In this document: positions 370 to 34,428 of the stretch, one piece after another
Layout of the letters: the number at the start of each line of letters is the position of its first letter
Numbering within the stretch: the stretch's first letter is position 1
Assembly: GCA_964443355.1 (NCBI GenBank)
Contig: CAYUDX010000002.1
Span: 1,227-65,226, forward strand
Source: an uncultured Spirochaetia bacterium
Lineage (GTDB): Bacteria > Oederibacteriota > PGYV01 > Palsa-1178
Length of the DNA stretch: 64,000 nucleotides
Reading direction: 5' to 3'
The notes under the pieces: model-generated
What the model was told of the DNA's origin: nothing
The model's input: only the letters and a program-made list of their open reading frames with translations
Databases searched by the model: none
Position numbers and translations under genes: made by a program

Positions 370-1001
370 TGGCAACAAAGGAAAAGAAGAAATTCTCGTT
401 TGTTCAGGCGCAGATATTCATATTTGTTATTATCGGTATCGCTATCGGCGTTGTGATAAGCGCTGTTTATTATGACCAGCTTTTTGACCAGTTCATGGCC
501 CAAAAGCTGCGGTATATCGAGGATGACTGGTCAAAGACCGAGTATTTCGCAAATCGGCTCACAGACCAGGTCATTGCACTCAAAAAGCTCCTCGTGGCGG
601 ACAAGGTCAAGAAGGTGGACTATGAGCCTTTTGACAAGGCATTGGACCTTCGGAGCCGGATAATCGGCGGCGATACCCTCCAGGACAAAGTGCCTCTTTT
701 AAAGGAGCTTCTGGAGAACATCAACGCCATTATCACTTATTACAACTCGCGCATGGACTTGCGGAACAAACGCTTCTCCTATATCGAATGGGGGATGATA
801 ACGGGCGATTACGCCAAGGAATTCGAGGAAACGGTGCCTGAATACAACACCGACGCGGATGACTTTAACGGGAAGATAAAAATATTCCCTTACAGCTGGG
901 TCGCCCAGAAGAAAAAATACAAGGAATTGCCTTTGACTACGGAAGGCAAGATAACGCCGGTGCAGACGGCTACCGAGGAATATACGAGGGAAACCAAGTA
1001 G
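370..1001 (+). CDS. Membrane-anchored hypothetical protein (single N-terminal TM helix)
   Basis: AGGAGG RBS at 358-363 and ATG at 370. The hydrophobic segment IFIFVIIGIAIGVVISAVYY follows a KEKKK stretch. The ORF-track start at 282 lacks an RBS. Confidence 0.6.
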
Positions 1002-1437
1002 ACTTCCCCGGAGGAAAGTCCGGACTCTTTTGGAGCATGGTGCCCGCCGAAAGGCGGGGCGCGCGGGGACAAGACCGCGTGACGGATAGCGCAGCAGAAA
1101 ATATACCGCCGTTCGGCAGGTTTAAGGTTTCCTTCAGAATTGAAGTAAAGGTTGAGGGGAACCCTGAGCCTGTCGAAGGGTAAGGGTGAAAAGGTGGGGT
1201 AAGAGCCCACCGCGTTTTTCCGTGAGGAAGACGGCACTGCAAGCCCCTCCAGGAGCAAGGCCAAATAGAGGGCATATGCCGGAAAGGGAATATCCGAAAG
1301 GATCTTTACCTGCCGGCGGGGACGCTCCAATTCTTTTGCCCGGGTAGGCCGCATAGAGTAATTGCCGCCACTCGCCTTTAGCGCAAGCGATAAGGTGGGA
1401 ACAGAATCCGGCTTACGCACCGGCGTTGTCCTGCCTT
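945..1437 (+). ncRNA. rnpB: RNase P RNA (bacterial type A), rnpB
   Basis: P4 GGAGGAAAGTCCGG at 1010-1023. AAGGGTGAAAAGGTGGGGTAAGAGCCCACC, GGAGCAAGGCCAAATAGAGGG, CCCGGGTAGGCCGC and ACAGAATCCGGCTTA (1401-1415) all match the universally conserved M1 RNA segments. A ~20-bp P1 helix pairs 945-965 with 1416-1435, followed by a U-tract. Confidence 0.9.
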
Positions 1438-3632: not shown

Positions 3633-5213
<1,581 letters not shown>

Positions 5214-8926: not shown

Positions 8927-9475
8927 ATGCTCATAATAACCGCAAGCCCGAGAAAGAACTCCAACTCCACGGCCGCGGCGCTCTTTCTTGCCGGGCTTTC
9001 CGGCGCAAAATACGGGACAGTTGACGTCAACCGCCTTAAGATTCACCCCTGCAACGCATGCGGAAAATGCTCTATTGCCGGCGACTGTGTTTTTTATGAC
9101 GGCGGCGCACTCCTGATGGAAAAAGTAAAAAAAGCGCGCGCCGTCATTGTGGCTTCGCCCATATATTTTACGGGCGTTCCCGCGCCGCTCAAGGCCTTCA
9201 TAGACAGGAACCAGGCGGTGTGGAGCCTTTATCATGCCGGGAAAATAAAAAAGGCGGAAAAAAAGGACGGCATCATAGTCCTTACCGAGGGACATTCAAA
9301 GCCGAAATATTTCAAACCCGCCGAGAGCGAGATAAGGGCGTTCTTTGCGGTCAATGGCATAAAGACGGTGGCCGTGGTGAAATTAAAAAACATGGACGAG
9401 GCCGGGACGGCCCTTAAAAAAAGCGCGAACCGCGCAAAGCTGAAAAAAGCGGCCCTGCTCATGGGGGCGAAGTGA
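8927..9475 (+). CDS. Iron-sulfur flavoprotein (Isf)-like / NADPH-dependent FMN reductase family protein
   Basis: Flavodoxin-like fold motifs (IITASPRKNSNS, VIVASPIYF) plus a compact C-x2-C-x2-C-x5-C cluster (CNACGKCSIAGDC). Confidence 0.65.
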   Translation: MLIITASPRKNSNSTAAALFLAGLSGAKYGTVDVNRLKIHPCNACGKCSIAGDCVFYDGGALLMEKVKKARAVIVASPIYFTGVPAPLKAFIDRNQAVWSLYHAGKIKKAEKKDGIIVLTEGHSKPKYFKPAESEIRAFFAVNGIKTVAVVKLKNMDEAGTALKKSANRAKLKKAALLMGAK

Positions 9476-10353
9476 TGCTCGACAACGGGAACCTGAAGTC
9501 GTTCATAGGTTTTTTGCAGTATGAAAAGGGACTTTCGGAAAACACCGTGGAGGCCTACACATCCGACCTGAAATTATTCGACGCTTTCCTTGAAAAAACA
9601 AAACCCGCAAAAATAGACGAGGACACGCTTGTGGATTTCATATTTTATTTGAAGAGCTCGGCGCACATCAGCAGGTCTGTCGCGCGCGCACTTGTGGCGG
9701 TAAAGGGGTTTTACAGGTTCCTGACAATGACAGGGAAGATGAAAAATAGCCCTTTCGAGGAGATGGACTCATTCAAGGTAAAAGGGACCATTCCGGAAGT
9801 GCTCGCCGAGTCCGAGATAGAAAAGCTCCTGGCCGCGCCGGACATGACAAAAAAAGAGGGCATCAGGGACAAAGCCATCATGGAGCTCTTATATTCCGCG
9901 GGGCTGCGAGTCTCGGAGCTTGCCGGGCTTGAGCTAACAGACATCAACCTCGAGGAAAAAATGGTGCGCTGCTACGGCAAGGGGTCCAAGGAGCGCATGG
10001 TGCCGCTGGGCGATTACGCGGTGGATTCCCTAGCCGAATACATAGACATAAGGAAGGAATTTTTAAGGGATTTCTCGCAGCATCTGTTCCTTACCAGGCT
10101 GGGGAAAAAGTTCACGCGCGAGGGAGTCTGGAAGGTTGTAAAAGGATACGCAAAAAAAAGCGGCATAACCAAGGACGTTTACCCGCACATTTTCAGGCAT
10201 TCTTTCGCCACGCATTTGCTGGCCGGCGGCGCGGACCTGCGCAGCGTCCAGGAAATGCTGGGACACTCGGACATATCAACCACGCAGATATACACGCACG
10301 TTGACAGGACAAGGCTGAAAAAAATACACAAGCAGTTCCATCCGCGGGGATAG
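9472..10353 (+). CDS. Tyrosine site-specific recombinase, XerC/XerD family
   Basis: N-terminal SAM-like domain (FL.YE.GLSENTVEAY..DL) and a catalytic domain with RHSFATHLL...LGHSDISTTQIYTHV; 293 aa. Confidence 0.85.
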   Translation: MMLDNGNLKSFIGFLQYEKGLSENTVEAYTSDLKLFDAFLEKTKPAKIDEDTLVDFIFYLKSSAHISRSVARALVAVKGFYRFLTMTGKMKNSPFEEMDSFKVKGTIPEVLAESEIEKLLAAPDMTKKEGIRDKAIMELLYSAGLRVSELAGLELTDINLEEKMVRCYGKGSKERMVPLGDYAVDSLAEYIDIRKEFLRDFSQHLFLTRLGKKFTREGVWKVVKGYAKKSGITKDVYPHIFRHSFATHLLAGGADLRSVQEMLGHSDISTTQIYTHVDRTRLKKIHKQFHPRG

Positions 10354-10368
10354 GACGCGTTGTTCTGT

Positions 10369-11105
10369 CCTTGTAGGGGCGGACTCGCCCGGCACTTGTT
10401 TGGCATGGCACGGCTCAGGTTTTGGTTTTGCATGGCGGTCAGTGGTTTTTTTAGCCAATCGGGACGCTCTGGCCGTTGCCGGATGACACGGTAAAAGTGG
10501 TTATGAAGCTTTACGCAGCTATATTGACACATAAAAGTATTAATGTACGATTGGCAAAAAAAACCACTGCCGGCCATTTTTGGTTTGTCCCGGTATTATG
10601 TTTTGTCCATGTAGGGGCGGACCTGTGTGTCCGCCCGGCATTTGTTTGGCATGGTACGGCTCAGGTTTTGGTTTTGCATGGCGGTCAGTGGTTTTTTTAG
10701 CCAATCGGGACGCTCTGGCCGTTGCCGGATGACACGGTAAAAGTGGTTATGAAGCTTCACGCAGCTATATTGACACATAAAAGTATTAATGAACGATTGG
10801 CTAAAAAAACCACTGCCAGCCATTTTTAGTTTGTTCCGGTATTCCATGTAGGGGCGGACTCGCCCGGCATTTGTTTGGCATGGCATGGCTCAGGCTTGGC
10901 CTTGTATGGCAGGCAAGTGCTTTTTTTTCGCCCTGCCATCAAGCTCTATGCCGTGCAGGATGACATAGAAAAGGTGTAATTTAGCTTCACGCAGCTTAAC
11001 TGACATATAAAAGTATTGGGATGGCAGGCCGAAAAAAAACCACTGCCAGCCATTTTTAATTTGTTCCGGTAATTGTGGGCTTGTTCCCTGTAGGGACCGC
11101 CCCAA
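10369..11105. repeat. Tandem array (3 full + 1 partial copies) of a ~237-bp structured repeat
   Basis: Units start at 10369, 10607 and 10844 with CC(T/A)TGTAGGGGCGG. Each unit has a GC hairpin (stem lengthened in copy 2) and a ~30-bp long-range inverted repeat (GCATGGCGGTCAGTGGTTTTTTTAGCCAATCG ... CGATTGGCTAAAAAAACCACTGCCAGCCAT) enclosing ~85 nt. Copy 3 has diverged in both arms in a compensatory way. Confidence 0.85.
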
Positions 11106-11203
11106 GCCATGCACGCCGAAGCTTCAGCGAAGGTGTGTGGCGGCCCGTCCCGGGCCTTGCTTTCAAACCCGGGGTTTATGAAAAACAATGGAGGGTAATA
11201 TCA

Positions 11204-11725
11204 ATGGGAAAAAGGTTCATTGTGATAACTTTGCTGGTGACCGCGGCCCTGGTTGTCGCCGTGTTCTGCGCCGGGCTCGGAATCAGGTCATACAGGGAAA
11301 GATCCTCGATGCACAGTTTCGAGGCTGTCGTGGCAAAAGTCGTCGACGGCGACACTGTCTGGACGGATAATGGTGAAAAGATCAGGCTGCTCGGCATCGA
11401 CACGCCCGAGCTTCACCACCCCGATTATCCGGTGCAGGCTTTCGCACAGGAGGCAAAGGATTACGTGGCCGGCAGGATACTCGGGAAAAAATGCGTCTTT
11501 GAATACAGCGACCTTGACCATTACGACAAGTACGGGAGGACGCTGGCCTTTATTTACATCGACGGTGACCTTGTGAACGCCGAGATAGTGAAAAAGGGGC
11601 TCGGATACGCCAGCGTGAACAAATACCTTTCAAAGACCCGGGAATTCCTGGTAATAGAGAACATAGCCAAAAAGTTCAGGGTGGGTTTGTGGCAATATGA
11701 AGAGGGGGGGCAGAAGAAACAATGA
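11204..11725 (+). CDS. Thermonuclease (staphylococcal nuclease homolog), membrane-anchored/secreted
   Basis: DGDT...RLLGIDTPE SNase motifs with an N-terminal hydrophobic anchor. GGAGGG RBS precedes the ATG at 11204; the track ORF start at 11075 lies in the repeat array. Confidence 0.8.
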   Translation: MGKRFIVITLLVTAALVVAVFCAGLGIRSYRERSSMHSFEAVVAKVVDGDTVWTDNGEKIRLLGIDTPELHHPDYPVQAFAQEAKDYVAGRILGKKCVFEYSDLDHYDKYGRTLAFIYIDGDLVNAEIVKKGLGYASVNKYLSKTREFLVIENIAKKFRVGLWQYEEGGQKKQ

Positions 11726-12195
11726 AGGATGAAAACAAGAATTTTTTCCTAAAGACCGGGACCATCACAGCCGCGGCCTTGATAGTGGCCTTTTGCGTAA
11801 AGCTCTGGATAGTGGACGCTTTCCTTTCTCAGAGGAAACAGCCATCGTTTTCGCGCTCGGCCATAATCAACGGCGGCGTGAAAACAAACTGGGACAAGAC
11901 AAAGCACGTCATAGACTGGCGCGACGCATCGAAGCACGTGGGGGATTACGTCGAAATAACAGGGACAATAGTGGCATCGCACAAGAACGACAAGATATGT
12001 TACCTTAATTTTGACAGGGATTACGTGAACAACGTGGCGCTCATCATCTTCGCGAGCAACTACGAGCGTTTTCCGAAGGATATGGAAAAATATTACCTGG
12101 GCAAAAAGCTGAAGGTTGAGGGCAGGATAAAGGAATTCAAGGGAAGGCTCGAGATACCCCTCGACGACACCGCGCAGATAACAGCGGTAAAATAA
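11722..12195 (+). CDS. Membrane-anchored hypothetical protein with a probable OB-fold domain
   Basis: N-terminal TM helix, and a VGDYVEITGTIVASHKNDKICYLNF...KVEGRIKEFKGRLEI pattern typical of nuclease-associated OB folds. ATGA overlap with the nuclease gene. Confidence 0.5.
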   Translation: MKDENKNFFLKTGTITAAALIVAFCVKLWIVDAFLSQRKQPSFSRSAIINGGVKTNWDKTKHVIDWRDASKHVGDYVEITGTIVASHKNDKICYLNFDRDYVNNVALIIFASNYERFPKDMEKYYLGKKLKVEGRIKEFKGRLEIPLDDTAQITAVK

Positions 12196-12221
12196 GAAGA
12201 ACAGGGACAAGGCGGAAAAAT

Positions 12222-13631
12222 ATGCGGCAAAAAAAACATGCGGTAATAAAAAGAACCGGATTTTTCCTGATGTTCTTCCTTTTCTTTGCCGCCATGCAAG
12301 TCAACGCCTCAGGCGGCGCGCCGGCGTGGAACGTCCCGGAAGGCGCGGATAAAGGGACCGTGGTTCTGCTCGTATCCGACATCCATTTCGACCCTTTCGC
12401 GGACGGCGCGGCCAAGGAACTTGAAAAAACGGACATCGGTTCCTGGCGGGCCATACTTGAGGCCCTGGACAAGGGCAAATTTCCCGATTACGGCGATGAT
12501 ACAAATTTCAGCCTGCTTGAGTCTTCGCTGAAAGAAATAGGAAAGACCGCGGGCGGCGCGGATTGCGCGATAGTATGCGGGGACATGATATGCCACAGGT
12601 TCGAGGCAAAATACAGGCTCCACTGCTCCCTGACCGGGTCCGGCTCCGGGTTTGCATTAAAAACAATCGAGTTCCTTTCCCTTATGATTAAACAGTCCCT
12701 TCCAGGCGTTCCGGTTTATTATGTAGTCGGGAACAACGATTCCGACAACGGCGATTACAATATCAGGCCATCCGGAGAAATGCTTTCCGCCCTTTCATCC
12801 GCCTATGAAACAATAAGCTCGGACAGGAGAGCAAAAGCGGATTTTGCCCGGGGCGGATATTACGAGCTGCCGTTCCCCGGCATCGACAAAGGGGAGCTTA
12901 TCGTATTGAACGACGTTTACTGGCACAGGGGATACAAGCGTTCCCGCAGGATAAAGGAACAACCCGGCGACATTGAAATAAAATGGCTGAAACAGGAACT
13001 CGACGCAGCCTCGGCAAAGGGGAAAAAGGCTTTGATAGCAATGCACATACCGCCGGGCATAGATTCTTATCTGGCGGCTAAAGACAAGGCATGCAAGGGG
13101 CCGGACGGCTTCCTGCTGCCCGGATACAACGACGAATTCCTGGCGCTTATGGCTTCACACGGCGCGGTTGTGGAAAATATTTTTTCCGGCCACACCCATT
13201 TTGACGATTTCAGGGTATTCTCAAATGAAGCCGGGCCGTTTTTGACGGTGTCGATAATCCCTTCCATAAGCCCGGTCCACGGGAACAATCCCGCTTTCGA
13301 GATGGCCATGCTTAAAAAAAACGGGGAGATCGCGGATAAGGCCGTATACAGCCTGGCGGGATACGGGGTCAGCGGCGCCTCGCCGGCGTGGGGGCTTGAA
13401 TACATGTTTTGCGGCGCTTACGGCGTCGGGGATATGGGCCCGGCGAGCATGGCTTCACTTGCGGAATCTATCGGGGAAAAAGAGGCCGCCCGGGACAGCT
13501 ATTTTTCCTTTTATACGGCCGGCAACACCCTGCTTTCCATGCTGCTGGTAAAACAAAGCGCTGCTTACGGCTGCGCGCTGACCGGGGAAAATTTCAGCGA
13601 ATACGCGGAGTGCGGCTGCGGTGTTAAATGA
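12222..13631 (+). CDS. Secreted calcineurin-like metallophosphoesterase
   Basis: Signal peptide, then the motifs DIHFD, GDMICH, GNND, MHIPPG and GHTHFDDF. Confidence 0.7.
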   Translation: MRQKKHAVIKRTGFFLMFFLFFAAMQVNASGGAPAWNVPEGADKGTVVLLVSDIHFDPFADGAAKELEKTDIGSWRAILEALDKGKFPDYGDDTNFSLLESSLKEIGKTAGGADCAIVCGDMICHRFEAKYRLHCSLTGSGSGFALKTIEFLSLMIKQSLPGVPVYYVVGNNDSDNGDYNIRPSGEMLSALSSAYETISSDRRAKADFARGGYYELPFPGIDKGELIVLNDVYWHRGYKRSRRIKEQPGDIEIKWLKQELDAASAKGKKALIAMHIPPGIDSYLAAKDKACKGPDGFLLPGYNDEFLALMASHGAVVENIFSGHTHFDDFRVFSNEAGPFLTVSIIPSISPVHGNNPAFEMAMLKKNGEIADKAVYSLAGYGVSGASPAWGLEYMFCGAYGVGDMGPASMASLAESIGEKEAARDSYFSFYTAGNTLLSMLLVKQSAAYGCALTGENFSEYAECGCGVK

Positions 13632-13733
13632 TAATTATCAATTTCCAAACAGGTTATTAACTCCTTCCGGGTAGTATTATAACCGCACCGTTGATTATTC
13701 TAATTTTAAATTTTGCAAAAAAAGGAGAGAAAT

Positions 13734-14453
13734 ATGAAAAGAATTCCAAGGATATTTTTTGCCCTGTTTTTTTCCGTTTTATTATCAACATGCATGCTTT
13801 ACGCATCCGCAAAGGTATACGTGCCGGCCACGGACGTGGACCTAACTAAAATTTTACCGCCCCCGCCCGCGCAGGATTCCGTCAGGACAAAAAACGAAAT
13901 AGCCGAAATACTCGATTTTCAGGAAAGCCGGACCGACAAAATGGTCAAGTACGCGCAGGCCGACCAGGAAATAAGCGTATTCAGGTTTTCCGACATCATG
14001 GGCGACAAATTCACAAGGGAAAATCTTCCCTTTACGGAAGAATTTTTTCACAATGTTACGGCAAACGCTTCCATAATATCCGGGCCTGCCAAGGATTTCT
14101 GGAAAAGGCCGAGGCCGAGCGTTTATGACCCAAGGGTGAAGCCGTGCGTAAAGGTCCCGCCGAACGCCGCGTACCCGAGCGGACATTCCACGGCAGGCAA
14201 CCTTATGGCAATAATACTGGCGAATATGGTCCCGGAAAAAAGCGCGGAAATATACGGGCGCGGCTGGGATTTTGCGGTCAACAGGATAATAGGAGGGGTG
14301 CATTACCGCAGCGATTCGGAGGCCGGGCGCATGGCGGCCACGGTTATCGCGGCATTTATGTTTAAAAACCCGGATTTTTTGGCCGATTACGAGAGGGCAA
14401 AAGCCGAGATACGCAGGGCGCTCGGCTATGAAGACAAGTCAGCCGGGAATTAG
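13734..14453 (+). CDS. Class A nonspecific acid phosphatase (PAP2 family, PhoN-like)
   Basis: Signal peptide and the PAP2 motifs KRPRP, PSGHS and RIIGGVHYRSDSEAG. AAAGGAGAG RBS precedes the ATG at 13734. Confidence 0.8.
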   Translation: MKRIPRIFFALFFSVLLSTCMLYASAKVYVPATDVDLTKILPPPPAQDSVRTKNEIAEILDFQESRTDKMVKYAQADQEISVFRFSDIMGDKFTRENLPFTEEFFHNVTANASIISGPAKDFWKRPRPSVYDPRVKPCVKVPPNAAYPSGHSTAGNLMAIILANMVPEKSAEIYGRGWDFAVNRIIGGVHYRSDSEAGRMAATVIAAFMFKNPDFLADYERAKAEIRRALGYEDKSAGN

Positions 14454-23449: not shown

Positions 23450-25093
23450 TTGGAATTTGTAAAAGCCGTCGAGGAAAATTTCAGATTGATGGTGCTTGAG
23501 GTCACAAAACAGCTTGAGGATACGCTCAAGCTCCTCGGCGCGTATTCAAAACAGCTGGCGGAAAAAGTGCGCAACAGGGACGATTACATAGACAGTATGA
23601 AGAACATAGTGGAAAACAAGAATTTTTCATCCGTGGCGGGCAGGGAAAAAGTCGACAAAAAAACCCTCCATAACATGTGGGCGGTAAACACAATAGTGCA
23701 CAACCTGGAACATGTCGCCGACCTTGCGGTGAACATAGCCGACCAGGCCGGATATTTTTCGGAGGCCGATTACATAAAGAAGTACGACTATCCGGAATAT
23801 TTTAAAAAAATACTGGACGCCGTGTCCCTTGTGCCGAAAGCCCTATTTTCGGGGTCCATAAACCAGGCTTTGAAAATATGCAGCGTTGAATACGAGGTCG
23901 ACGCCATGTACGCGCAGGACCTCAAACACATAATAGAAGAGATGCGGTTTTCAAGGGAGGCGGGGAACATGGTGACTTCCATATTCATCCTGCAGTGCGC
24001 CGAACGCATGGGCGACTCCATTTTAAACATGGGCGAGGCCATAATATCCCTTGTAATGGGGGAAAGGATGAAGATACGCCAGTTCCAGGCGCTCGAGAAC
24101 ACGCTCTCAACGGCCGAGGAGAAGCAGAGGATAAGCGAATTCTCGCTTGAATCGGTCGGCGACACCAGGTCGGGAAGCACCATACGCAAGGTGTTCGAGC
24201 CCGGAGGCGACCAATCGTCGTCAAAATGGGTGGTATTCAAGGAAGGCCTTACGTCAAAGCTGGCAAAGGAAAAGGAAAACATGGAAGCCTGGGAAAAAAT
24301 CGAGCAGGGCCTTCCGCCGGGGATATTCGGCTACCAGGCGAACGGAAGGACCGCCTCCATAATACTTGAATACTTAAGCGGCAGGAACATGAAAGACGTT
24401 GTGATAAACGAAAAAAGCGCTAACGTAAAGGAAGCCATGGGGCTGGTAAAATCCACCCTTGAAAGGGTCTGGACCAGGACCCTTAAAAGACAGCAGACAA
24501 AGGCCATGTATATGGAACAGCTCGCCTCGAGGATAGGCGACGTTTACAGGGTCCATCCGGATTTTTTGCACAGTGAAAGCAGGATAGGAGGCCTTGAGGT
24601 CCCGTCATTCGAAGAGATGCTGAAAACGGCCGTACAGATCGAAAAAAAGCTCGAGGCGCCGTTCTCCACGTTCATTCACGGGGATTTCAACATCGACAAT
24701 ATAATATACAACGCGGCGGAAAAAAGGATAAATTTTATCGACCTTCACAGGTCGTCCAACAACGATTACGTCCAGGACGTTTCGGTTTTCATTGTATCGA
24801 ATTTCAGGATGCCTTTTTTTGAGCCCACAGTGAGGAAAAAATTGAACTGGGTAATAAACGATTTCTACGATTTTGCCGCGGAATTCGCGCGCAAAAACGG
24901 CGACGCCACGTTCGACGCGAGGCTGGCCTTCGGCCTGATAAGGTCGTTTTTGACCTCCACAAGGTTTGAATTCAACGGGGAGTTCGCGAAAATCATGTAC
25001 CTGAGGTCGGTATATCTTACGGAAAAAATAATAGCGCACGGCGCGGGGCCCTGGGATGAATTTTACGTCCAGAAGGATATTTTCACATATTGA
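23450..25093 (+). CDS. PhoU-like domain / aminoglycoside-phosphotransferase-like kinase fusion protein
   Basis: N-terminal half contains two PhoU-like helical repeats (...HNLEHVADLAVNIADQ... / ...QCAERMGDSILNMGEAI...). C-terminal half has APH/choline-kinase-fold motifs (IHGDFNIDNIIY, INFIDLHRSS). 4-nt gap after the upstream small gene. Confidence 0.6.
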   Translation: MEFVKAVEENFRLMVLEVTKQLEDTLKLLGAYSKQLAEKVRNRDDYIDSMKNIVENKNFSSVAGREKVDKKTLHNMWAVNTIVHNLEHVADLAVNIADQAGYFSEADYIKKYDYPEYFKKILDAVSLVPKALFSGSINQALKICSVEYEVDAMYAQDLKHIIEEMRFSREAGNMVTSIFILQCAERMGDSILNMGEAIISLVMGERMKIRQFQALENTLSTAEEKQRISEFSLESVGDTRSGSTIRKVFEPGGDQSSSKWVVFKEGLTSKLAKEKENMEAWEKIEQGLPPGIFGYQANGRTASIILEYLSGRNMKDVVINEKSANVKEAMGLVKSTLERVWTRTLKRQQTKAMYMEQLASRIGDVYRVHPDFLHSESRIGGLEVPSFEEMLKTAVQIEKKLEAPFSTFIHGDFNIDNIIYNAAEKRINFIDLHRSSNNDYVQDVSVFIVSNFRMPFFEPTVRKKLNWVINDFYDFAAEFARKNGDATFDARLAFGLIRSFLTSTRFEFNGEFAKIMYLRSVYLTEKIIAHGAGPWDEFYVQKDIFTY

Positions 25094-27877: not shown

Positions 27878-27906
27878 ATGTGTATCAAAAAAGGCGGTTA
27901 TTAAAA

Positions 27907-28584
27907 ATGGAAAAATTGATCGCAATAGTCGACGATGAGGACGACATACGCGAACTCGTGTCGATAAATCTGAAAAAGGCCGGTTTTAAGACCAAGGAAT
28001 ATTCCGACGCGGACTCGCTCATAAAATCACTTTCAAAATCCCTGCCCGACCTCATCATTCTCGACATAATGATGCCCGGCACCGACGGCATCGAGACCGT
28101 CAAGATATTAAAAAGGGACGACAGGTATTCCATGATCCCGGTCATACTGCTTACGGCAAAGAGCGACGAGCCTGAAAAAGTGGTCGGCCTCGAGATCGGC
28201 GCGGACGATTACGTCACAAAGCCATTTTCGCCCAGGGAGCTTGCGGCCAGGGTAAAGGCCGTATTAAGGCGCAGGGAAAATATCCGGGAGACGTCGGAAA
28301 TCGTCGAGATAGGACCGGTCACGATAGACATGGACAAGCACGAGGTCGCCGTCAGGGGAAAAAAAGTCGAGCTCACAGCGACTGAATTCAACATTCTGCA
28401 CATACTCGCCCTTAAAAAGGAGCGCGTGCTTTCGCGCGAACAGATACTGGACAACCTGTGGGGAAGCGAAAAAACCGTGGTCGACCGCACGATAGACGTT
28501 CACATAAAACATTTGCGCACAAAACTCGGGCCTGCCGGGAAAATGATAAGGAACATCCGCGGCGTGGGGTATAAAATCGAATAA
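27907..28584 (+). CDS. OmpR-family response regulator, PhoB/PhoP-like
   Basis: Receiver domain (IAIVDDEDDIRELV ... LIILDIMMPGTDG) plus a winged-helix output domain; upstream of a PhoR-like kinase and the pst operon. Confidence 0.8.
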   Translation: MEKLIAIVDDEDDIRELVSINLKKAGFKTKEYSDADSLIKSLSKSLPDLIILDIMMPGTDGIETVKILKRDDRYSMIPVILLTAKSDEPEKVVGLEIGADDYVTKPFSPRELAARVKAVLRRRENIRETSEIVEIGPVTIDMDKHEVAVRGKKVELTATEFNILHILALKKERVLSREQILDNLWGSEKTVVDRTIDVHIKHLRTKLGPAGKMIRNIRGVGYKIE

Positions 28585-30314
28585 TGAAAAACAAACTTTT
28601 CATCAGGATATTTTTGAGCTACATAATAATCGCGGCGGCAACCGCGGTCCTGGCGGGATTTTTTTCCATCAACTCCATCACATCCCATACGATCGAGACC
28701 CAAAAATCGGTACTGAAAAAGATCATCATTGTCATAACCCCGTCCGTCATCCCTTACCTTAACAACCCTGGAAGCGAGGGGCTCGAGGATTTTGTCAGGA
28801 AAATGAGCGCCGGTACGGATATAAGGTTCAGTTTTATCAACAAGGAAGGGCGCGTGCTGGCGGATTCCGAACACGACCCGGAGACCATGGACAACCACAG
28901 CTACAGGCCCGAGGTAAGGGCCGCCCTTGACGGCAAGGACGGGTATGCCATGCGCTACTCCAATACAATAAAGGAAAACATGCTTTATTACGCATCCCCT
29001 TATTTTGGCGAAAAGAACACCGTCACAGCCGTCATAAGGGCCTCGATGCCGGTTTCGGACATAAGCGCGCTGTCCGACGCCATGATAATGGAGATAATAA
29101 AGGCCCTGTTCCTGGTCCTGCTTGTTGCGCTCGCGGCGGCTTATTTATATTCGCAGAATCTGTACAGGCCCATAAAGGAGCTGGCCATAGCCTCTGGCAA
29201 GGTGGCGGCAAAGGATTTTGACGTAAGGGTGGCTGTCAGGCAACGCGATGAAATGCACGAACTGGCCGAGAATTTTAATTTCATGACGTCGCAGATAAAG
29301 CAGCTTTTTTCCGACCTGACCGAAAAACAGAAACAGCTGGATTCCATAATAGATTCCGTGTCCGAAGGGCTGCTTGTGGTGGACGAAAAGGGAAGGATAG
29401 TGCTCATAAACAAAAGTTTCCGCGCGATCGCCGGCGCGGAGATAAAGGAAGGCGGATTTTACTGGGAATGCTTCATGCCGGTAAAATTCAACGAAATGGT
29501 GGAAAGAGGCTTGAAGAACAGGAGCTATTTCGTGGAACAGCTCGACATCAAGGGCAGGACATACCTTTGCAGCGCGAATTTTCTCGACGAAAAAAAGCAG
29601 GCGGCTTTCGTCCTTTATGACATATCCGAGTTCAAGGACCTGGAACGCATCAAGAAGGATTTTGTGGCAAACGTGTCCCACGAACTGCGCACGCCTCTGA
29701 CTGCCATAAAGGGTTTTGCCGAGACACTGGAGCAGGATTCAAAGGACGCGGAATCGCGCCATTACCTCGACATAATAAAAAAGAACGCCGACAGGCTCAT
29801 CAATATAGTCACGGACCTGCTGACATTGTCCCAGCTGGAAGAGATGGAAAAGCTGGGTGACACCGAAAAAGTCAACATGGCAGAGGTCGTCGCCAACGCC
29901 GCAAAGATATTTGAACAGGCGATCAAGGCAAAGGGGATAGAAATACGAGTGAACATGGACAAAAATCTGCCGGCGATAAAAGGGGATTTTTTCAGGCTCG
30001 AGCAGGTATTCATAAACCTGATAGACAATGCCGTAAAATACACGGAAAAAGGGAACATCGAAATATCGGCAAAATCGGACGGTAAACAAATAATAATGAA
30101 GGTGGCGGATACCGGCGCGGGAATAGCGCAGGACCACCTGCCCAGGATATTCGAAAGGTTCTACGTGGTGGACAAGTCGCGCTCCAGAAAACTCGGCGGC
30201 ACCGGGCTCGGGTTATCCATAGTAAAGCACATAATAGGGCTCCACAACGGCCGCATCACGGTCGTCAGCGAGCAGGGAAAAGGCACGACATTCGAGATAA
30301 CGCTCCCGCTTTGA
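28584..30314 (+). CDS. Sensor histidine kinase, PhoR-like (TM-HAMP-PAS-HisKA-HATPase)
   Basis: HisKA H-box SHELRTPL; N, G1 and G2 boxes (NLIDNAVKYT, DTGAGI, GGTGLGLSIV); two TM segments. Confidence 0.8.
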   Translation: MKNKLFIRIFLSYIIIAAATAVLAGFFSINSITSHTIETQKSVLKKIIIVITPSVIPYLNNPGSEGLEDFVRKMSAGTDIRFSFINKEGRVLADSEHDPETMDNHSYRPEVRAALDGKDGYAMRYSNTIKENMLYYASPYFGEKNTVTAVIRASMPVSDISALSDAMIMEIIKALFLVLLVALAAAYLYSQNLYRPIKELAIASGKVAAKDFDVRVAVRQRDEMHELAENFNFMTSQIKQLFSDLTEKQKQLDSIIDSVSEGLLVVDEKGRIVLINKSFRAIAGAEIKEGGFYWECFMPVKFNEMVERGLKNRSYFVEQLDIKGRTYLCSANFLDEKKQAAFVLYDISEFKDLERIKKDFVANVSHELRTPLTAIKGFAETLEQDSKDAESRHYLDIIKKNADRLINIVTDLLTLSQLEEMEKLGDTEKVNMAEVVANAAKIFEQAIKAKGIEIRVNMDKNLPAIKGDFFRLEQVFINLIDNAVKYTEKGNIEISAKSDGKQIIMKVADTGAGIAQDHLPRIFERFYVVDKSRSRKLGGTGLGLSIVKHIIGLHNGRITVVSEQGKGTTFEITLPL

Positions 30315-30347
30315 TCCCGTTTTTACCCATTTCCGATTAATCAGAAA

Positions 30348-30390
30348 TTAACAATCCAATCATACCGCCTTAACACCCTTTTCTTATAAT
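30348..30390 (+). promoter_or_regulatory. Pho-box-like array: TTAACA-N5-ATCATA-N5-TTAACA-N5-TTCTTA overlapping a TATAAT -10
   Basis: Hexamers at 30348, 30359, 30370 and 30381; TATAAT at 30385-30390, upstream of the porin gene. Confidence 0.5.
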
Positions 30391-30494
30391 TTCATCGTAA
30401 AAATAAAAAGCCAGTGAGCTTTATGTCAAATAAAAAAACACGGGAATTTTTGAAGGATGAAGACAGGGATCTTAAAAAACCAAGGAGGAAGGAA

Positions 30495-31613
30495 ATGAAA
30501 AAAGCACTAAGTTTTGTTTTAGCAGCAGTTTTTGCCCTCACGTTCTTTGCCTTTGCTTTTGCGGACGTCACGACGACATTTTACGGAATGCAGTGGCTCC
30601 GGTATGATTACCAGGTGTACGGGGGATCTTACGGCCCGGCGACATACGCAGGCGGAGGAGACAGCGACAACACGTTTTCCATACCGAGGACGTATCTGAG
30701 ATGGAAAATGGTGGGGGACGGATTTGAAGGGAACATAACCCTTGACATCAACAACGTGGACGGCGGACAGAATTCGGGAAAAAACTGGTCAAAAGACCTG
30801 CCGGGAGCCCTCACAACAGGCTCAATAGACTGGGCAATATGGGTAAAGAAGGCTTCTGTTGATTTCACAAACATACCGTTCCTTTCAAATATCGACGCCG
30901 CGATAAGGGTAGGACAGCAGGACGTGTATTTCGGAACGATCGATACATGGTCATATCCTACGATAGAGAAAGCCATCGAAGACAAGAACGGAGTCATCAG
31001 CAGCGCAGACCAGGGAATATCGCTCGTCGGAAAGCTCGGCGGATGGGGCGGATATGAAGCGGCTGTTTACAACGGGACCGGATACAAGACAACAGCGATC
31101 GATTCAAACCAGGACATCACCGACAAAGCGTATGATATGAGCGTGCTTTTGACCCCTATCGCGGGAATTTATGCAAGGGCATCCTATTATCACAGGCTCA
31201 CCAATCCCCTCGGCACAAAGACTTACGGTTATAACACATCGGCTTTGGTCGTTGGCGGAGCATCCGGACCGATAGAAGGTTTCGTGGAATATTTGACGGC
31301 CAATGACGCAAGCAAATACACCGCGGGCTCGGTATCAGGAGTCCTCGTCGGATGGGAAGGCTATATGGGCATAAAGCTTACAGACATGGTACAGCTTGTC
31401 GCCAGGATAGACACATACGACCCGGATACAAGGACGCACAATAATGAAGTCAACACATACATAGCAGGCGTGAACATAGCCATGACGAACGCGACAACTT
31501 TACAGCTTGATTACCAGCTTGACGCCAACAAGTTCCCGTACCTCGGCGGCGCCAAAGACAACAACAATTCCAACAACAACCAGTTCCTTGCGCAGCTCGT
31601 CTGGAAATGGTAA
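30495..31613 (+). CDS. Outer-membrane beta-barrel porin (possibly phosphate-selective, OprO/P-like by context)
   Basis: Signal peptide, alternating amphipathic strands and a C-terminal aromatic (LVWKW). AGGAGG RBS precedes ATG 30495. Located between phoBR-like genes and pstS. Confidence 0.55.
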   Translation: MKKALSFVLAAVFALTFFAFAFADVTTTFYGMQWLRYDYQVYGGSYGPATYAGGGDSDNTFSIPRTYLRWKMVGDGFEGNITLDINNVDGGQNSGKNWSKDLPGALTTGSIDWAIWVKKASVDFTNIPFLSNIDAAIRVGQQDVYFGTIDTWSYPTIEKAIEDKNGVISSADQGISLVGKLGGWGGYEAAVYNGTGYKTTAIDSNQDITDKAYDMSVLLTPIAGIYARASYYHRLTNPLGTKTYGYNTSALVVGGASGPIEGFVEYLTANDASKYTAGSVSGVLVGWEGYMGIKLTDMVQLVARIDTYDPDTRTHNNEVNTYIAGVNIAMTNATTLQLDYQLDANKFPYLGGAKDNNNSNNNQFLAQLVWKW

Positions 31614-31680
31614 CATTGTAGAAACAGAAAAACAGGATCCGAGTAGTTAAATAAAAACTGATAAAAATCAGGAGGGTAAG

Positions 31681-32523
31681 ATGAAAAATTTAACAAAGGC
31701 GGCGGCAGTTCTCGCGCTTGCCGCGGTACTTACGGTTCCCGCTTTCGGATGGAATTTTCCGTGGGCGTCGAAATCCGCGAACAAGCTTGCGCTTCAGGGC
31801 TCCACAACGGTCCTTCCGATAGCGCAGAAAGAAGCGGAAGAGTTCATGAAGGCGAATAAAGATGCGGACATATCGGTTTCAGGCGGAGGATCGGGCGTCG
31901 GAATATCGGCCCTGATAGACAGCTCGTGCGATATCGGCGATTCCTCAAGGTCGATAAAGGCGAAAGAAATAGTCATGGCAAAGCAGAAAGGCGTAAATCC
32001 CGTGGGAACGATCATCGCCAATGACGGCATTGCGGTCGTCGTTAACAACGGGAACAAAGTAGAGGCGCTTTCGCTCGACCAGCTGAAGGCCATTTATTCC
32101 GGCCAGATAACAAAGTGGAGCCAGGTAGGCGGATCCGACGACACCATAGTGATAATTTCGCGCGACAGCGCATCCGGCACATTCGAGGTTTTCAACGAGC
32201 TGGTCCTGAAAGGCGCGAAACTGCGCGAGGATTCACTCATGCAGGCTTCCAACAAGGAAGTGGCGGAGACGGTCGCAAAAACACCGGGCGCGATAGGCTA
32301 CGTAGGGCTGGGATACCTCTCGAGCGACCTTAAGGCCCTTAAGATCGCGGGAGTCATGCCTTCCGATGCGACCGTATTGAACGGCACATACAAGCTCTCA
32401 AGGCCCCTTTATATGTACACGAACGGCGACCCTTCCGGGCTCGCAAAAACCTTCATCGACTTTATTTTAAGCGACGAAGGACAGAAAATAGTCAAAGATG
32501 TCGGGTTTGTGGTGGTAAAGTAA
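31681..32523 (+). CDS. pstS: Phosphate ABC transporter substrate-binding protein
   Basis: Signal peptide, then the PstS-family core (LQGSTTVLPIAQKEAEEF ... SGGGSGVGI). Confidence 0.85.
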   Translation: MKNLTKAAAVLALAAVLTVPAFGWNFPWASKSANKLALQGSTTVLPIAQKEAEEFMKANKDADISVSGGGSGVGISALIDSSCDIGDSSRSIKAKEIVMAKQKGVNPVGTIIANDGIAVVVNNGNKVEALSLDQLKAIYSGQITKWSQVGGSDDTIVIISRDSASGTFEVFNELVLKGAKLREDSLMQASNKEVAETVAKTPGAIGYVGLGYLSSDLKALKIAGVMPSDATVLNGTYKLSRPLYMYTNGDPSGLAKTFIDFILSDEGQKIVKDVGFVVVK

Positions 32524-32672
32524 ATCCAGAGACCTGCAATAAAAGTTCCTGAAAAGGCCCGCCTTTTGGCGGGCCTTTTCTTTTTAACACAATCTTAACA
32601 ATCGGGCAACTTTCCATTAACATGCGGGCCATATAATATGTTGGAAAATAGAAGAAAATAACGGAGAAAAAA

Positions 32673-33551
32673 ATGGCAAAACAAACCGGAATGAGGAAAA
32701 ATTTTATCGAACGCATATTGCCCGCAGTCGCGTCAATATCGCTGCTTTTTCTCCTGGGCATCGCGGTCACACTGGTATTTGCCTCTTTGCCGGTGTTCCA
32801 GACAGTATCGGTCAAGGACTTCATTTTCGGGACCGACTGGAGGCCGACTGCCGAGCCGCCGTCGCTGGGGATATGGTCGCTGATAGTCGCATCCTTTTTT
32901 GTCACAGTGGGCGCAATACTTTTTGCGGTACCGCTGGGGCTGGGCAGCGCGGTGTATATAGCCGAGCTGGCGAACCCCACCATGAAGGAAATATTAAAAC
33001 CAATAATGGAAATACTCGCCGGCATCCCGTCGGTTGTTTTCGGTTTTTTCGGAATAGTATTCGTGGCGCCCATAGTCCAAAAAGTGTTCCACCTGAATAC
33101 GGGGCTCTGCGGTTTTACCGCGGCCCTTATACTCGGCATAATGGCCATACCGACGATCTCCAGCATCTCGGAGGACGCGATATCCGCGATATCAAAGGAA
33201 CTGCGTAACGCATCGTACGCCCTTGGCGCAAACAAATGGGAGACCATAATAAAGGCCGTCATCCCCGCCGCAAAATCCGGCATATTCACCGCTATCATAC
33301 TCGGTGTGTCCCGCGCCATGGGAGAGACAATGACGGTATTAATGGTCGCCGGAGGCGCCGTAAAAGTGCCGACCTCGCTGTTTGACCCGATGAGGCCGAT
33401 GACCGCGACCATCGCCGGGGAAATGGGAGAAGCGGTCGGAGGCAGCGCCCATTACCACGCCCTTTTCGCAATGGGGCTCGTCCTGTTCATCATAAATATA
33501 TGTTTCAATTTAACCGCCGAGTATTTCCAGAAGGGGAAAAGGAATGTTTAA
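32673..33551 (+). CDS. pstC: Phosphate ABC transporter permease PstC
   Basis: Six-TM permease with the EAA-like loop (ASYALGANKWETI). Confidence 0.85.
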   Translation: MAKQTGMRKNFIERILPAVASISLLFLLGIAVTLVFASLPVFQTVSVKDFIFGTDWRPTAEPPSLGIWSLIVASFFVTVGAILFAVPLGLGSAVYIAELANPTMKEILKPIMEILAGIPSVVFGFFGIVFVAPIVQKVFHLNTGLCGFTAALILGIMAIPTISSISEDAISAISKELRNASYALGANKWETIIKAVIPAAKSGIFTAIILGVSRAMGETMTVLMVAGGAVKVPTSLFDPMRPMTATIAGEMGEAVGGSAHYHALFAMGLVLFIINICFNLTAEYFQKGKRNV

Positions 33552-34428
33552 AAACATGGCTTCGGCAATCAGATCAAAGGAATCAAGGTCCATAAACCAG
33601 GAGCTTGGGTTTACCCTCCTGAAATTATGCATTCTTATGGTCGTTTTGTCGCTGGGCGTGCTGGTTGTATTCATTATAGTAAAAGGGGCCGGAGTCATTA
33701 ATATACAATTTTTAACCCAGTCGCCGCGTGACGGAATGGTAAAAGGGGGTATTTTTCCCGCAATATTGGGGACTTTTCTTCTTTCATTGGGCGCCATAAT
33801 TTTTGCACTGCCGACGGGCGCACTTACGGCTGTGTGGCTCACCGAATACGCCACAAGCCAGAGATTTGTGCGTATAATAAGGATAGGGATAAACAGCCTT
33901 GCCGGAGTGCCTTCCATTGTTTTCGGGCTTTTTGGCCTGGCGTTCTTTGTTAAATTCATGGGTTTCGGCGTATCGCTGCTGTCCGGGTCGTTCGTTCTCG
34001 GCATCCTTATACTGCCGACAATCATCGGGGCCTCCGAAGAGGCGCTTTTGACCGTGCCGAAATCTTTCAAGGAAGCCTCGCTCAGCCTTGGCGCCACAAG
34101 ATGGGAGACAATGTCAAAAATAATCCTGCCCAACGCCATTCCGGGGATCCTGACCGGGATAATTTTGAGCGTCGGCCGCGCGGCCGGGGAGACGGCGCCG
34201 ATACTTATGACGGCCGCGACATTTTACACGGCGCGCCTGCCGAATTCGCTTTTTTCAAAGGTCATGGCGCTGCCCTACCATATTTACGCGCTTATGACCG
34301 AGGGTTCCGCGAAGGGCCAGACAGAGATAGCCTACGGGACCGCGCTTGTGCTTTTGATGCTGGTGCTTGCAATAAACAGCGTTGCCATATATATCAGGAT
34401 AAAGGCAAGAAGGAAGAGGAAATGGTAA
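33544..34428 (+). CDS. pstA: Phosphate ABC transporter permease PstA
   Basis: Second permease with SLSLGATRWETMSKIILP. Start overlaps the pstC stop. Confidence 0.85.
   Translation: MFKNMASAIRSKESRSINQELGFTLLKLCILMVVLSLGVLVVFIIVKGAGVINIQFLTQSPRDGMVKGGIFPAILGTFLLSLGAIIFALPTGALTAVWLTEYATSQRFVRIIRIGINSLAGVPSIVFGLFGLAFFVKFMGFGVSLLSGSFVLGILILPTIIGASEEALLTVPKSFKEASLSLGATRWETMSKIILPNAIPGILTGIILSVGRAAGETAPILMTAATFYTARLPNSLFSKVMALPYHIYALMTEGSAKGQTEIAYGTALVLLMLVLAINSVAIYIRIKARRKRKW

Follow-up and report, generated by a model that had tools for sequence, protein, structure and literature searches.

The spacer between xerD and the gene for a staphylococcal-nuclease homologue in the window (the whole 64-kb stretch of DNA analysed here) carries a tandem array that, in our judgement with a probability of about 0.6, arose by local amplification, within an operon, of a composite, non-coding and lineage-restricted mosaic repeat of the REPIN/BIME/MITE-like kind, the spread of which would depend on hairpin formation. 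Each unit joins two modules, a short GC hairpin headed by GTAG and a ~146-bp foldback element, hereafter E. E is a discrete, sharp-ended, non-coding element scattered through unrelated intergenic sites of Goldbacteria-like genomes; its arms remain complementary while their sequence shifts between copies, and its copy number at the xerD–nuclease spacer differs between relatives. The repeat is restricted to one uncultivated lineage of peat-bog bacteria.

Architecture of the array

The ~237-bp units, each headed by GTAG, have their starts at 10368, 10606 and 10843, and a remnant follows at 11085, which bears out the three tandem copies and remnant of the preliminary description; in Tandem Repeats Finder the array has a period of 246 with 1.9 copies and a match rate of 96%. 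Copies 1 and 2, described as nearly identical, are 95.2% identical, and copy 3, put at ~75%, is 72.5-73.6% identical to them. The features are as follows.

9475..10353, plus strand: xerD, a housekeeping tyrosine recombinase gene (Pfam Phage_integrase and Phage_int_SAM_1); neighbour, outside the element
10373..10390, plus strand: REP-like head 1, a GTAG tag ahead of a GC stem of 5 bp (GGGCG gact CGCCC); REP1 word set
10392..10431, plus strand: linker of unit 1, from sequence reading and unit alignment; the equivalent linkers of units 2 and 3 lie at 10637-10677 and 10866-10905
10432..10577, plus strand: E copy 1, subfamily A (inverted repeat; nhmmer match 10424-10588, E-value 5.8e-49), with left arm 10432-10461, an 86-nt core and right arm 10548-10577
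10611..10636, plus strand: REP-like head 2, a GTAG tag ahead of a GC stem of 8 bp (GGGCGGAC ctgtgt GTCCGCCC)
10678..10823, plus strand: E copy 2, subfamily A (inverted repeat; nhmmer E-value 6.4e-50), with arms 10678-10707 and 10794-10823
10848..10865, plus strand: REP-like head 3, a GTAG tag ahead of a GC stem of 5 bp
10906..11053, plus strand: E copy 3, subfamily B (inverted repeats; nhmmer E-value 1.7e-33)
11090..11156, plus strand: fourth GTAG head, degenerate and split by a nested insert (…CCGAAGCTTCAGCGAAGGTG…); direct and inverted repeats
11204..11725, plus strand: gene for a staphylococcal-nuclease homologue (Pfam SNase), the first gene past the array

In E, 30-bp arms enclose a core of ~86 nt, and each arm combines an inner stem and a run of T7 or A7 with an outer part that is GC-rich and variable. 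The arms begin with ATGGCAGGC and lack a GTAG tag. In copies 1 and 2 they are 30 nt each, 90-93% complementary and 86 nt apart, whereas copy 3 pairs differently (10916-10940 with 11020-11044, 92% complementary), so that the long-range inverted repeats of ~30 bp noted previously were recovered, including those of copy 3. The inner stem of copy 3 is CCTGCCATC / GATGGCAGG instead of AGCCAATCG / CGATTGGCT, and owing to this swap each of its arms is able to fold on itself. The same inner-stem type occurs at L034:11313-11481; self-folding arms are confined to subfamily B (window copy 3 and L034b), and those of subfamily A are not self-complementary. The stem of the head has 8 pairs in copy 2 and 5 in copies 1 and 3, exactly as initially read. 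The small palindrome reported to be conserved, AGCTTCACGCAGCT, is present in copies 2 and 3, but copy 1 reads AGCTTTACGCAGCT. The linker of unit 1 holds a partial direct copy of the left-arm start (GGCATGGCACGGCTCAGG), head 1 sits 20 nt past the xerD stop codon, and the nested insert of the fourth head also adjoins E in L025 and L027.

The flanking genes are of the types that had been proposed, an Xer-type recombinase and a secreted nuclease: a 100% protein match (P0001) and its relatives carry the source name XerD, and the nuclease homologue has an N-terminal hydrophobic segment (anchor), with the gene call in L039 mapping to the same start. Within the 64-kb window, the arm and head words occur in the array only, where chance would give 0.02-0.18 matches; the head word GTAGGGGCGGAC occurs three times against an expectation of 0.18, with stems of 5-8 pairs. 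As stated previously, no open reading frame is conserved across the copies, the cores of which differ by 1-nt indels. The interior of the array is a break point of several short-read assemblies. That the array itself might be an assembly artefact is contradicted by an independent ENA assembly, L039, which runs from xerD through to the nuclease gene and agrees with the window at 875/875 bases.

Copy number and dispersal in relatives

The orthologous spacer contains three E copies in the window and L039, at least two in L001 (XerD 95% identical), one in L002, L045 (XerD 88%) and L005 (84%), and none in L044 (XerD 73%), L007 (71%), L009 (72%) and L011 (63%). The gene order guaB-guaA-GDE-FMN_red-xerD-SNase is kept in relatives without the element, and in relatives the gap between xerD and the nuclease gene is 2 nt, which places the array inside an operon. 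The array has no specific tie to XerD, the recombinase being an ordinary chromosomal enzyme.

Copies elsewhere, for which a BLASTN-type search had been suggested, are readily found. A single pattern drawn from the core matched 9 loci in species-representative genomes, 8 of them on six contigs of bin CAZMGF01 and the ninth in an 'FCPU426' bog bin, as well as 17 loci in peat metagenomes; the same pattern gave zero matches in plasmid, phage and viral collections. With the diverged and partial copies added by nhmmer, the non-redundant set comprises 24 copies, which occupy about 14 unrelated intergenic sites of Goldbacteria-like genomes and peat metagenomes. The ends of E are sharp: mean pairwise identity is 0.31 in the flanks, while the outer arms reach 0.67-0.72 and the core 0.76. 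Tandem units are also present in L001 and L037. At the other loci, at least 13 in number, E adjoins unrelated genes and no recombinase; genes downstream of E encode SNase, an ABC ATPase, Pth, CspA, a hydrolase, PHP, PMT_2, an OmpA-like protein, RNase H, a PfkB kinase and an HTH-cupin protein.

Complementarity of the arms and properties of the core

Across the copies, 93.8% of arm cells are paired, compared to 87.7% in shuffles, and 15 pairs show two-sided changes, compared to 4.0 ± 1.5 in shuffles (0/500 shuffles reach 15) and 2-6 pairs in the slid-partner control. The covariation of the arms claimed previously is real and survives the addition of homologues, but copy 3 represents a symmetric subfamily swap rather than a series of point compensations. 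On the GTAG-bearing, gene-direction strand, stem mismatches comprise 19 A·C and 2 G·T, a count inflated by shared ancestry. This excess of A·C over G·T opposes the expectation from selection for folding of the GTAG-bearing strand.

The core is as conserved as the arms, and only 2-bp helices, with no conserved fold, are predicted for it on either strand. At the gathering threshold, Rfam 15 has a sole match in the window, RNase P at 953-1431; at a permissive threshold, the array yields only palindrome-driven matches to miRNA models, at ~27 bits versus cut-offs of ~97. The Rfam check therefore places the array in no known RNA family.

Several further candidates were considered and rejected. An inner hairpin around TGCCGGATGAC seemed compensated by eye, but its register is not constant from copy to copy and it is missing from the RNAalifold prediction. 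In the core, a plus-strand peptide (ATGAAGCTT…) meets a stop after 6 codons in most copies, and a minus-strand frame (ATGTGT…) is broken by 1-nt indels and has an unconserved start codon. Folding energy does not assign a strand, both strands folding about equally. A riboswitch or other cis-regulatory structured RNA is at odds with the lack of a multi-helix covarying core and of a common class among the downstream genes. The promoter scan passes one promoter-like site, a candidate sigma-70 promoter within the core, in copy 1 only; terminator-like sites number 3 against 1.7 expected, which is the background rate. The minus-strand TATAAT of the core has no -35 partner, and the sigma-54-like TGGCAG…GC of the left arm is incorrectly spaced on a consensus reading. 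The window is rich in phosphate-scavenging genes, which prompted consideration of a Pho box; the CTGACAT half-site is found in copy 3 only, and the other E loci are unrelated.

GTAG heads, orientation and ends

In 189.5 kb of E-bearing loci, all 28 GTAG hairpins have an E on their own strand at a distance of no more than 213 nt, and within any one locus they all share one strand, that is, they run head-to-tail. The head is located 13-20 nt past the xerD stop, and its stem covaries between loci (for example, GGCGGAC/GTCCGCC, GGCGGCC/GGCCGCC and GGCCGCC/GGCGGCC). The head module is accordingly a GTAG REP by its features, namely an imperfect GC-rich palindrome of 20-40 nt with 5'-GTAG, in an intergenic position near the 3' end of the upstream ORF. 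Pfam verified the downstream gene at 11 loci, and at each of them E points the way that gene does; the functions of these genes are unrelated. Comparison of the flanks revealed no target-site duplication, the longest shared word averaging 3.05 nt versus 2.68 nt for mismatched flanks, with no recurrent word. Six-frame translation of 354 kb of retrieved DNA, a small part of any one genome, contained no HUH / WQxRF / YxxxNP combination indicative of a RAYT/HUH enzyme, and Pfam analysis of 59 window ORFs detected no transposase and no integrase besides XerD.

Relationship to known repeat families

E resembles REPIN/BIME-type repeats more than a classical MITE, because it lacks target-site duplications, its arm variation is compensated and it is accompanied by co-oriented GTAG hairpins. 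Like the REPINs of Pseudomonas fluorescens SBW25, E is a non-coding intergenic foldback of ~100-150 nt with inverted arms around a spacer, it displays compensatory hairpin changes, it occurs both as dispersed copies and in tandem clusters that include flanks, and no target duplication is expected; the arms of subfamily B are, in addition, small palindromes (PMC3116915). Unlike in REPINs, the arms of E carry no GTAG and those of the main subfamily are not palindromic REPs, the GTAG hairpins form separate modules outside the foldback, and core and arms are equally conserved, the spacer being the less conserved part in REPINs (PMC3116915). E thus shares with REPINs the compensated hairpin and the flank-including tandem clusters, but is not built from two inverted GTAG REP palindromes that form a hairpin.

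The head, for its part, is a GC-rich imperfect palindrome of 20-30 nt with 5' GTAG, just past the upstream stop, and belongs to a mosaic with tandem copy number that varies in relatives, as do the GTAG REPs and BIMEs of Enterobacteria and Pseudomonads (PMC3333891, PMC3733652, PMC2817692). However, BIMEs alternate REP and inverted REP, whereas the heads described here all have one orientation, their partner module is a 146-bp foldback instead of a short linker, and in the sampled DNA they are never found away from E (PMC3333891, PMC3733652, PMC2817692). With the Correia elements of Neisseria and ERIC-type palindromic MITEs, E has in common an intergenic location, a size of ~100-150 bp, long inverted ends and a conserved core, as well as presumed co-transcription with the neighbouring genes, the possibility of a long RNA hairpin and promoter-like words near one end (PMC2649163, PMC10969869). 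It differs from them in the lack of TA or other duplication, the compensated arms, the strict orientation and the absence of sequence similarity, and promoter and IHF features are not demonstrable in E (PMC2649163, PMC10969869). Finally, the TIR families that flank RAYT-like 'TIRYT' genes and are proposed to be handled by Y1 transposases are also moderately abundant, longer inverted repeats, sometimes self-complementary, and form dimers or clusters; no TIRYT gene was seen here and E has no GGGGWSAS motif (PMC3733652). A link of E to TIRYT-type repeats may be regarded as a lead.

Alternative explanations

Selection acting on the transcript is a rather unlikely account of the array, albeit one to be taken seriously: E would serve in cis as an attenuator, terminator or mRNA-stability hairpin, possibly as an RNase III target and perhaps as an outward promoter, and the repeat family would spread since it supplies that function. 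The co-orientation of E with the downstream gene at 11/11 loci agrees with such a role, as do the position of the array inside an operon and the T-rich tract that follows the stem on the gene-direction strand only (79 T versus 33 A in the first 8 nt); the window copies terminate in …CCATTTTT, and the end of E is often within 45 nt of a start codon. A TTGACA-16-TACGAT match at 10524-10551 reads outward through the right arm, and Correia elements provide a precedent for promoter, IHF and RNase III effects (PMC2649163). Yet no more than about 10 of 25 copies have a clear U tract, the promoter-like words are TTTACA-16-AACGAT in most copies, below the threshold of the promoter scan, and the genes downstream in L016 and L019 have good promoters of their own past E. 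Furthermore, the sense-strand stem is nearly devoid of G·U pairs and rich in A·C mismatches, the core has no conserved fold, and the downstream genes have no common function. If E caused attenuation or RNase III processing, transcripts would be expected to end at …CCAUUUUU or to be cut inside the stem. Another reading, speculative and clearly improbable, would regard E with its head-to-tail GTAG hairpin as an undescribed non-autonomous element, the folded strand of which is recognised by a structure-specific recombinase of the HUH/Y1 or another kind, with the conserved ~86-nt loop as cargo, perhaps domesticated as a portable intercistronic insulator (an outward promoter combined with a terminator or an RNase III site). 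The A·C excess hints that the folded, selected strand may be opposite the GTAG tag and the flanking genes, unlike in REP/RAYT systems.

Among the origins suggested in the preliminary description, a MITE-like element with 30-bp TIRs came nearest, inasmuch as dispersed copies exist. A classical MITE, that is, a deletion derivative of an insertion sequence with a DDE transposase, mobilised in trans via its 30-bp TIRs, would be small, non-coding and dispersed, with long TIRs, sharp ends and presence or absence between relatives, all of which applies to E; however, this origin appears distinctly unlikely given the missing target-site duplication, the compensated variation of the arms, which is unlike a conserved protein-binding site, the strong orientation bias, the obligate pairing with co-oriented GTAG hairpins and the zero similarity in plasmid, phage and viral collections. 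We consider it very improbable that the units are independent sRNA genes with their own promoters, with transcription running either from the core site as far as the following GTAG hairpin or, in antisense, from the minus-strand TATAAT. Copy 1 does have a plus-strand -35/-10-like site, the GTAG hairpins of the window score terminator-like, the TATAAT is perfect in the core of many copies, and the A·C excess on the plus strand equals G·U on the minus strand. Against this stand the lack of an Rfam family and, on either strand, of conserved structure beyond the long stem, which together with the lack of a conserved upstream promoter leaves the array of structured sRNA genes envisaged before unsupported as well; the TATAAT has no -35 partner at 16-18 nt on a consensus reading, the sequences preceding the element are unrelated from locus to locus and thus contain no conserved promoter, and the tails of the GTAG hairpins are not U-rich at most other loci. 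An RNA initiated in the core would hold one arm only, leaving the complementarity of the arms unexplained. The last of the earlier suggestions, namely reiterated att sites linked to the adjacent recombinase, is rejected here; that the units are att-, dif- or attC-like sites of this Xer-type enzyme has next to no likelihood. The array adjoins xerD, the AT-rich core word CATAAATGTATTAT loosely recalls the dif centre, and attC sites are recognised as folded hairpins with variable sequence, but XerD is a syntenic housekeeping gene, also in relatives without the element, unrelated genes without a recombinase adjoin E at no fewer than 13 other loci, and one genome bin holds eight copies. The GC skew is monotonic across the window, without a switch, and thus the window is not a terminus; the ATAA…TTAT half-sites are 5 nt apart, not 6, with a polymorphic central base, and no cassette ORFs separate the units.

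Proposed origin of the array

Amplification of a mosaic repeat, the reading we prefer, would involve spread or duplication through a step that requires hairpin formation in single-stranded nucleic acid. The likeliest route would be a structure-specific enzyme acting on single-stranded DNA, of the HUH/Y1 kind (RAYT/TIRYT-like). RAYT/TIRYT-like HUH/Y1 enzymes are thought to move GTAG REPs and REPINs. Such a single-strand step, if it took place, would account for the missing target duplications and the strand bias, for arms that vary with compensation and for the strict orientation shared by heads and E; the enzyme is hypothetical, since the scans described above found no RAYT-like or other transposase. 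Tandem units may then have formed by unequal recombination or slippage between neighbouring units, with copies 1 and 2 presumably representing a recent duplication and copy 3 an older or separately acquired unit of subfamily B. [quoted passage not shown] Against amplification of a mosaic repeat, the arms carry no GTAG tag and those of subfamily A are not palindromes, the excess of A·C mismatches on the GTAG-bearing strand runs counter to selection for folding of that strand, and the orientation bias is equally expected under a selected function at the RNA level.

Being inside the xerD–nuclease operon of relatives, the array is probably transcribed. Each E would then yield an RNA duplex of ~30 bp followed by a U-rich tract, and such a duplex could attenuate read-through, stabilise the upstream mRNA or attract RNase III. 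We regard these effects on the transcript as a by-product, not as the reason for the existence of the array.

Conclusions

The array is a repeat family and not CRISPR-like, the latter as already noted in the preliminary description; nor is it recombinase-linked, and annotation of these genomes should mask the family or model it as a repeat. This has practical consequences, as the repeat breaks short-read assemblies of peat-bog genomes and yields spurious small gene calls. Our results leave the current understanding of such repeats in place and extend mosaic repeats of the REP/REPIN/BIME type to an uncultivated candidate phylum (Goldbacteria / FCPU426-like), in an unusual architecture that couples head-to-tail GTAG hairpins to a long foldback with co-evolving arms. 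The family could be used to test whether hairpin complementarity in such repeats is kept at the DNA or the RNA level, and the presence of 0, 1 or 3 copies within one conserved operon offers a natural comparison for effects on downstream expression.

A dispersed foldback element

Each unit of the window array contains one copy of E, a foldback element of ~146 bp (two 30-bp arms enclosing an 86-nt core) that is here demonstrated to be a discrete non-coding element dispersed within genomes. A core-pattern search of the species-representative genome collection returned 9 loci, of which 8 are spread over six contigs belonging to one bin and the ninth is in an 'FCPU426' bog bin, and peat metagenomes yielded 17; the search for dispersed MITE-like copies, a possibility raised in the preliminary description, was thus positive. 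The same pattern had no match among viral contigs, plasmids and phages. An nhmmer profile brought in diverged and partial copies, giving a total of 24 non-redundant full copies that run from ATGGCAGGC… to …GCCTGCCAT. Mean pairwise identity among non-orthologous copies rises from 0.31 in the flanks to 0.67-0.72 in the outer arms and reaches 0.76 in the core; hence, the ends are sharp and the core is under no distinctly stronger constraint than the arms. Since the core carries single-base indels between copies and candidate start codons vary, E is non-coding. Lone right-arm remnants occur near some full copies, and the solo or partial copies, which lie 60-100 nt from full ones at the following loci, look like decayed tandem partners.

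L017, ~1030-1050
L025, 5164-5224
L027, 6566-6630

The array and its orthologous spacer

Within window positions 10361-11160, a direct-repeat search located GTAG-headed units beginning at 10368, 10606 and 10843, followed at 11085 by a fourth, degenerate head, and Tandem Repeats Finder gave the first two units a period of 246 bp with 96% matches. Identity is 95% between units 1 and 2 and 73% between unit 3 and either of them. Each unit contains a 30-nt inverted repeat whose arms, 86 nt apart, are 90-93% complementary, the pair in unit 3 having a different sequence and equal complementarity. The stem of the head hairpin comprises 8 pairs in unit 2 and 5 pairs in the other two units. The layout initially described is thereby confirmed, with three units, a remnant and head stems of 5, 8 and 5 bp. 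Array words are found, in the 64-kb window, in the array alone, far above chance. The suspicion that the region is an assembly artefact did not hold: an independent assembly (L039) covers the entire xerD-nuclease spacer and matches it at 875 of 875 bases, which shows that the array is neither a collapsed nor a chimeric repeat. In five independent assemblies of the same or a near-identical genome (L001, L040, L041, L042 and L043), contigs break off inside the array or shortly ahead of it; short-read assemblies of this lineage are fragmented by the repeat.

Window 11090-11156: GTAG hairpin split by a palindromic insert nested in it (…CATGCACNCCGAAGCTTCAGCGAAGGTGTNTG…)
Window 10596-10886 (-) and 10179-10577 (-), L001 7225-7317, L040 3622-3783: ORFs of 30-130 codons through repeats

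The nested insert also adjoins E in L025 and L027; since it recurs at unrelated loci, it is itself a separate repeated module. The ORFs almost certainly arise spuriously from the repeat; some ORFs crossing repeats are called as genes in public assemblies.

The gene upstream encodes a XerD-type tyrosine recombinase; its best matches among proteins carry the name XerD and belong to Candidatus Goldiibacteriota-type bins. The gene downstream encodes a homologue of staphylococcal nuclease that bears a hydrophobic anchor at its N terminus. All relatives examined share the order guaB, guaA, glycogen-debranching enzyme, FMN reductase, xerD, nuclease, OB-fold protein, whereas the xerD-nuclease spacer is not conserved, demonstrating presence/absence and copy-number change of E at an orthologous site.

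Content of the xerD-nuclease spacer (identity of XerD in brackets)
Window: three units
L001 (95% identical): at least 2 units
L002, L045 (88%), L005 (84%): one unit each
L044 (73%): no unit; 86 nt with its own TTGCTT-17-TATAAT promoter
L007 (71%): no unit
L009 (72%): no E; (GAACAAC)41 microsatellite
L011 (63%): gap of 2 nt

Because spacer content varies while gene order holds, the repeat is a recent arrival within an otherwise single operon and XerD is no dedicated partner of it; the proposed link to the recombinase through att sites is accordingly not supported, the gene order around xerD being kept in relatives lacking E. Different kinds of repeats gather in this spacer by lineage, as L009 has a microsatellite instead of E. 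There, the 41-copy GAACAAC heptanucleotide (3997-4283) is preceded by 7 copies of GGGTGGT (3868-3918). In more distant relatives, 2 nt separate the stop codon of xerD from the start of the nuclease gene (L011 3894-3896, L012 1372-1374). This spacing suggests that xerD is co-transcribed with the nuclease and OB-fold genes, unusual partners for a chromosome-dimer resolvase.

The arms co-evolve

In the 24-copy alignment, 93.8% of cells in the long stem are paired, compared with 87.7% in shuffles, and 15 of the 27 stem pairs show two-sided changes (4.0 ± 1.5 in shuffles; 0 of 500 reach that number); a slid-partner control gave just 2-6 such pairs. The arms of E therefore demonstrably co-evolve, and the covariation noted within the window persists with added homologues, point compensations being abundant family-wide. 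For copy 3 itself, the complementarity is real but reflects a symmetric module swap rather than serial point compensations. Unit 3 represents a second subfamily, common to one L034 copy, in which the inner stem AGCCAATCG / CGATTGGCT is exchanged on both sides for CCTGCCRTC / GAYGGCAGG; as this word duplicates the outer stem, each arm can fold on itself. Neither strand of the 86-nt core yields a supported consensus structure, 2-bp helices alone being predicted, and the idea of an array of sRNA genes finds no support there. A small core hairpin that appeared compensated by eye was rejected, its register not being constant between copies.

GTAG hairpins in mosaic with E

REPs are defined as imperfect palindromes of 30-40 nt with a conserved GTAG 5' to the foot (PMC3333891, PMC3733652), a definition that the unit head (GTAG, then a GC-rich stem) fits. 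Across 189.5 kb of E-bearing loci, the unit head had 20 matches and a second head type (GTAGAGCCGCTG…) had 8; each of the 28 lies at most 213 nt from an E on the same strand, and none occurs elsewhere in this DNA.

Second GTAG-hairpin family (GTAGAGCCGCTGC…GCGGCT): L001 6917; L005 7160; L013 420; L019 297; L020 412; L023 4005; L027 6273 and 6541

Given that each of these GTAG hairpins lies near a co-oriented E, the repeated entity is a mosaic of head and E. Its tandem clusters demonstrably include flanks. The layout is head-E-head in L013 and L045 and tandem head-E units in L001, L037 and the window. This architecture is unlike that of known GTAG families, in which head-to-tail arrangement is reportedly absent or rare (PMC3733652), and of BIMEs, in which REP orientation alternates (PMC2817692): here, heads stand head-to-tail in one orientation.

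Orientation and possible transcript signals

E copies are intergenic without exception and co-oriented with the downstream gene at all 11 distinct loci having a Pfam-verified downstream ORF (chance if random, 2^-11, ~0.0005). The genes encode a nuclease, ABC ATPase, peptidyl-tRNA hydrolase, cold-shock protein, hydrolase, PHP phosphoesterase, PMT_2 glycosyltransferase, OmpA-like protein, RNase H, PfkB kinase and HTH-cupin regulator; being unrelated in function, they exclude a riboswitch-type role. On the gene-sense strand, the stem tends to be followed by a T-rich tract (79 T versus 33 A in the first 8 nt); all three window copies show it plainly (…CCATTTTT), but no more than ~10 of 25 copies do so in total. 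From E copy 1, a promoter-like TTGACA-16-TACGAT reads outward; most copies have the weaker TTTACA-16-AACGAT instead, and in L016 and L019 the downstream genes have good promoters of their own 3' of E.

Folding energy is similar on both strands. Outer-stem mismatches on the gene-sense strand comprise 19 A·C versus 2 G·T in the alignment of E copies (e.g., L034:2046-2220, L037:676-847 and L025:5230-5402), and the inner stem has C·A in five copies; A·C mismatches read as G·U wobbles on the opposite strand. Many A·C cases are one stem position occurring as G·C, A·C or A·T, and by our tally independent events number roughly 15 versus 5. This excess is no more than suggestive of opposite-strand folding, and it runs counter to the bias of E towards gene-sense orientation, to the T tract on the plus strand and to the strand on which the GTAG tag stands.

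Other features of the window

953-1431 (+): bacterial class A RNase P RNA, 195.7 bits

At 479 nt versus 367 nt for the model, this RNA has several large insertions in peripheral helices. Phosphate-scavenging functions are dense at 11204-14450, 23450-25090, 27880-35923, 38012-47712 and 51052-53409: a secreted nuclease, metallophosphoesterases, a PAP2 phosphatase, PhoU-domain proteins, a PhoB/PhoR-like pair, pst genes, a phosphonate transporter, the C-P lyase genes phnI and phnJ, and a phosphodiesterase/endonuclease. The nuclease operon 3' of the array may belong to a Pho regulon.

Interpretation

The demonstrated behaviour of E and its heads agrees with that described for REPINs and REP/BIME clusters. 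By analogy with these, spread of the family would rely on a hairpin forming in single-stranded DNA and might be mediated by a structure-specific Y1/HUH enzyme, a step that stays hypothetical because no such gene was seen in the 354 kb of DNA examined or among 59 window ORFs, which are housekeeping, chemotaxis and phosphate or phosphonate genes. Of the three explanations originally offered, a MITE-like element comes closest, E being small and dispersed; however, no target-site duplication is detectable around its copies, and the repeat fits better among REPIN/BIME-type repeats, as a variant. The main rival to such spread is an effect on the transcript, if proved to be under selection. Positioned inside an operon, the array is very likely transcribed, and three long hairpins with U tracts could plausibly attenuate or process the transcript as a consequence, reminiscent of Correia elements, which influence promoters and RNase III cleavage (PMC2649163).

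On present evidence, the E family represents no new kind of biology; it helps annotation and can be used to study how the arms of palindromic repeats remain matched.
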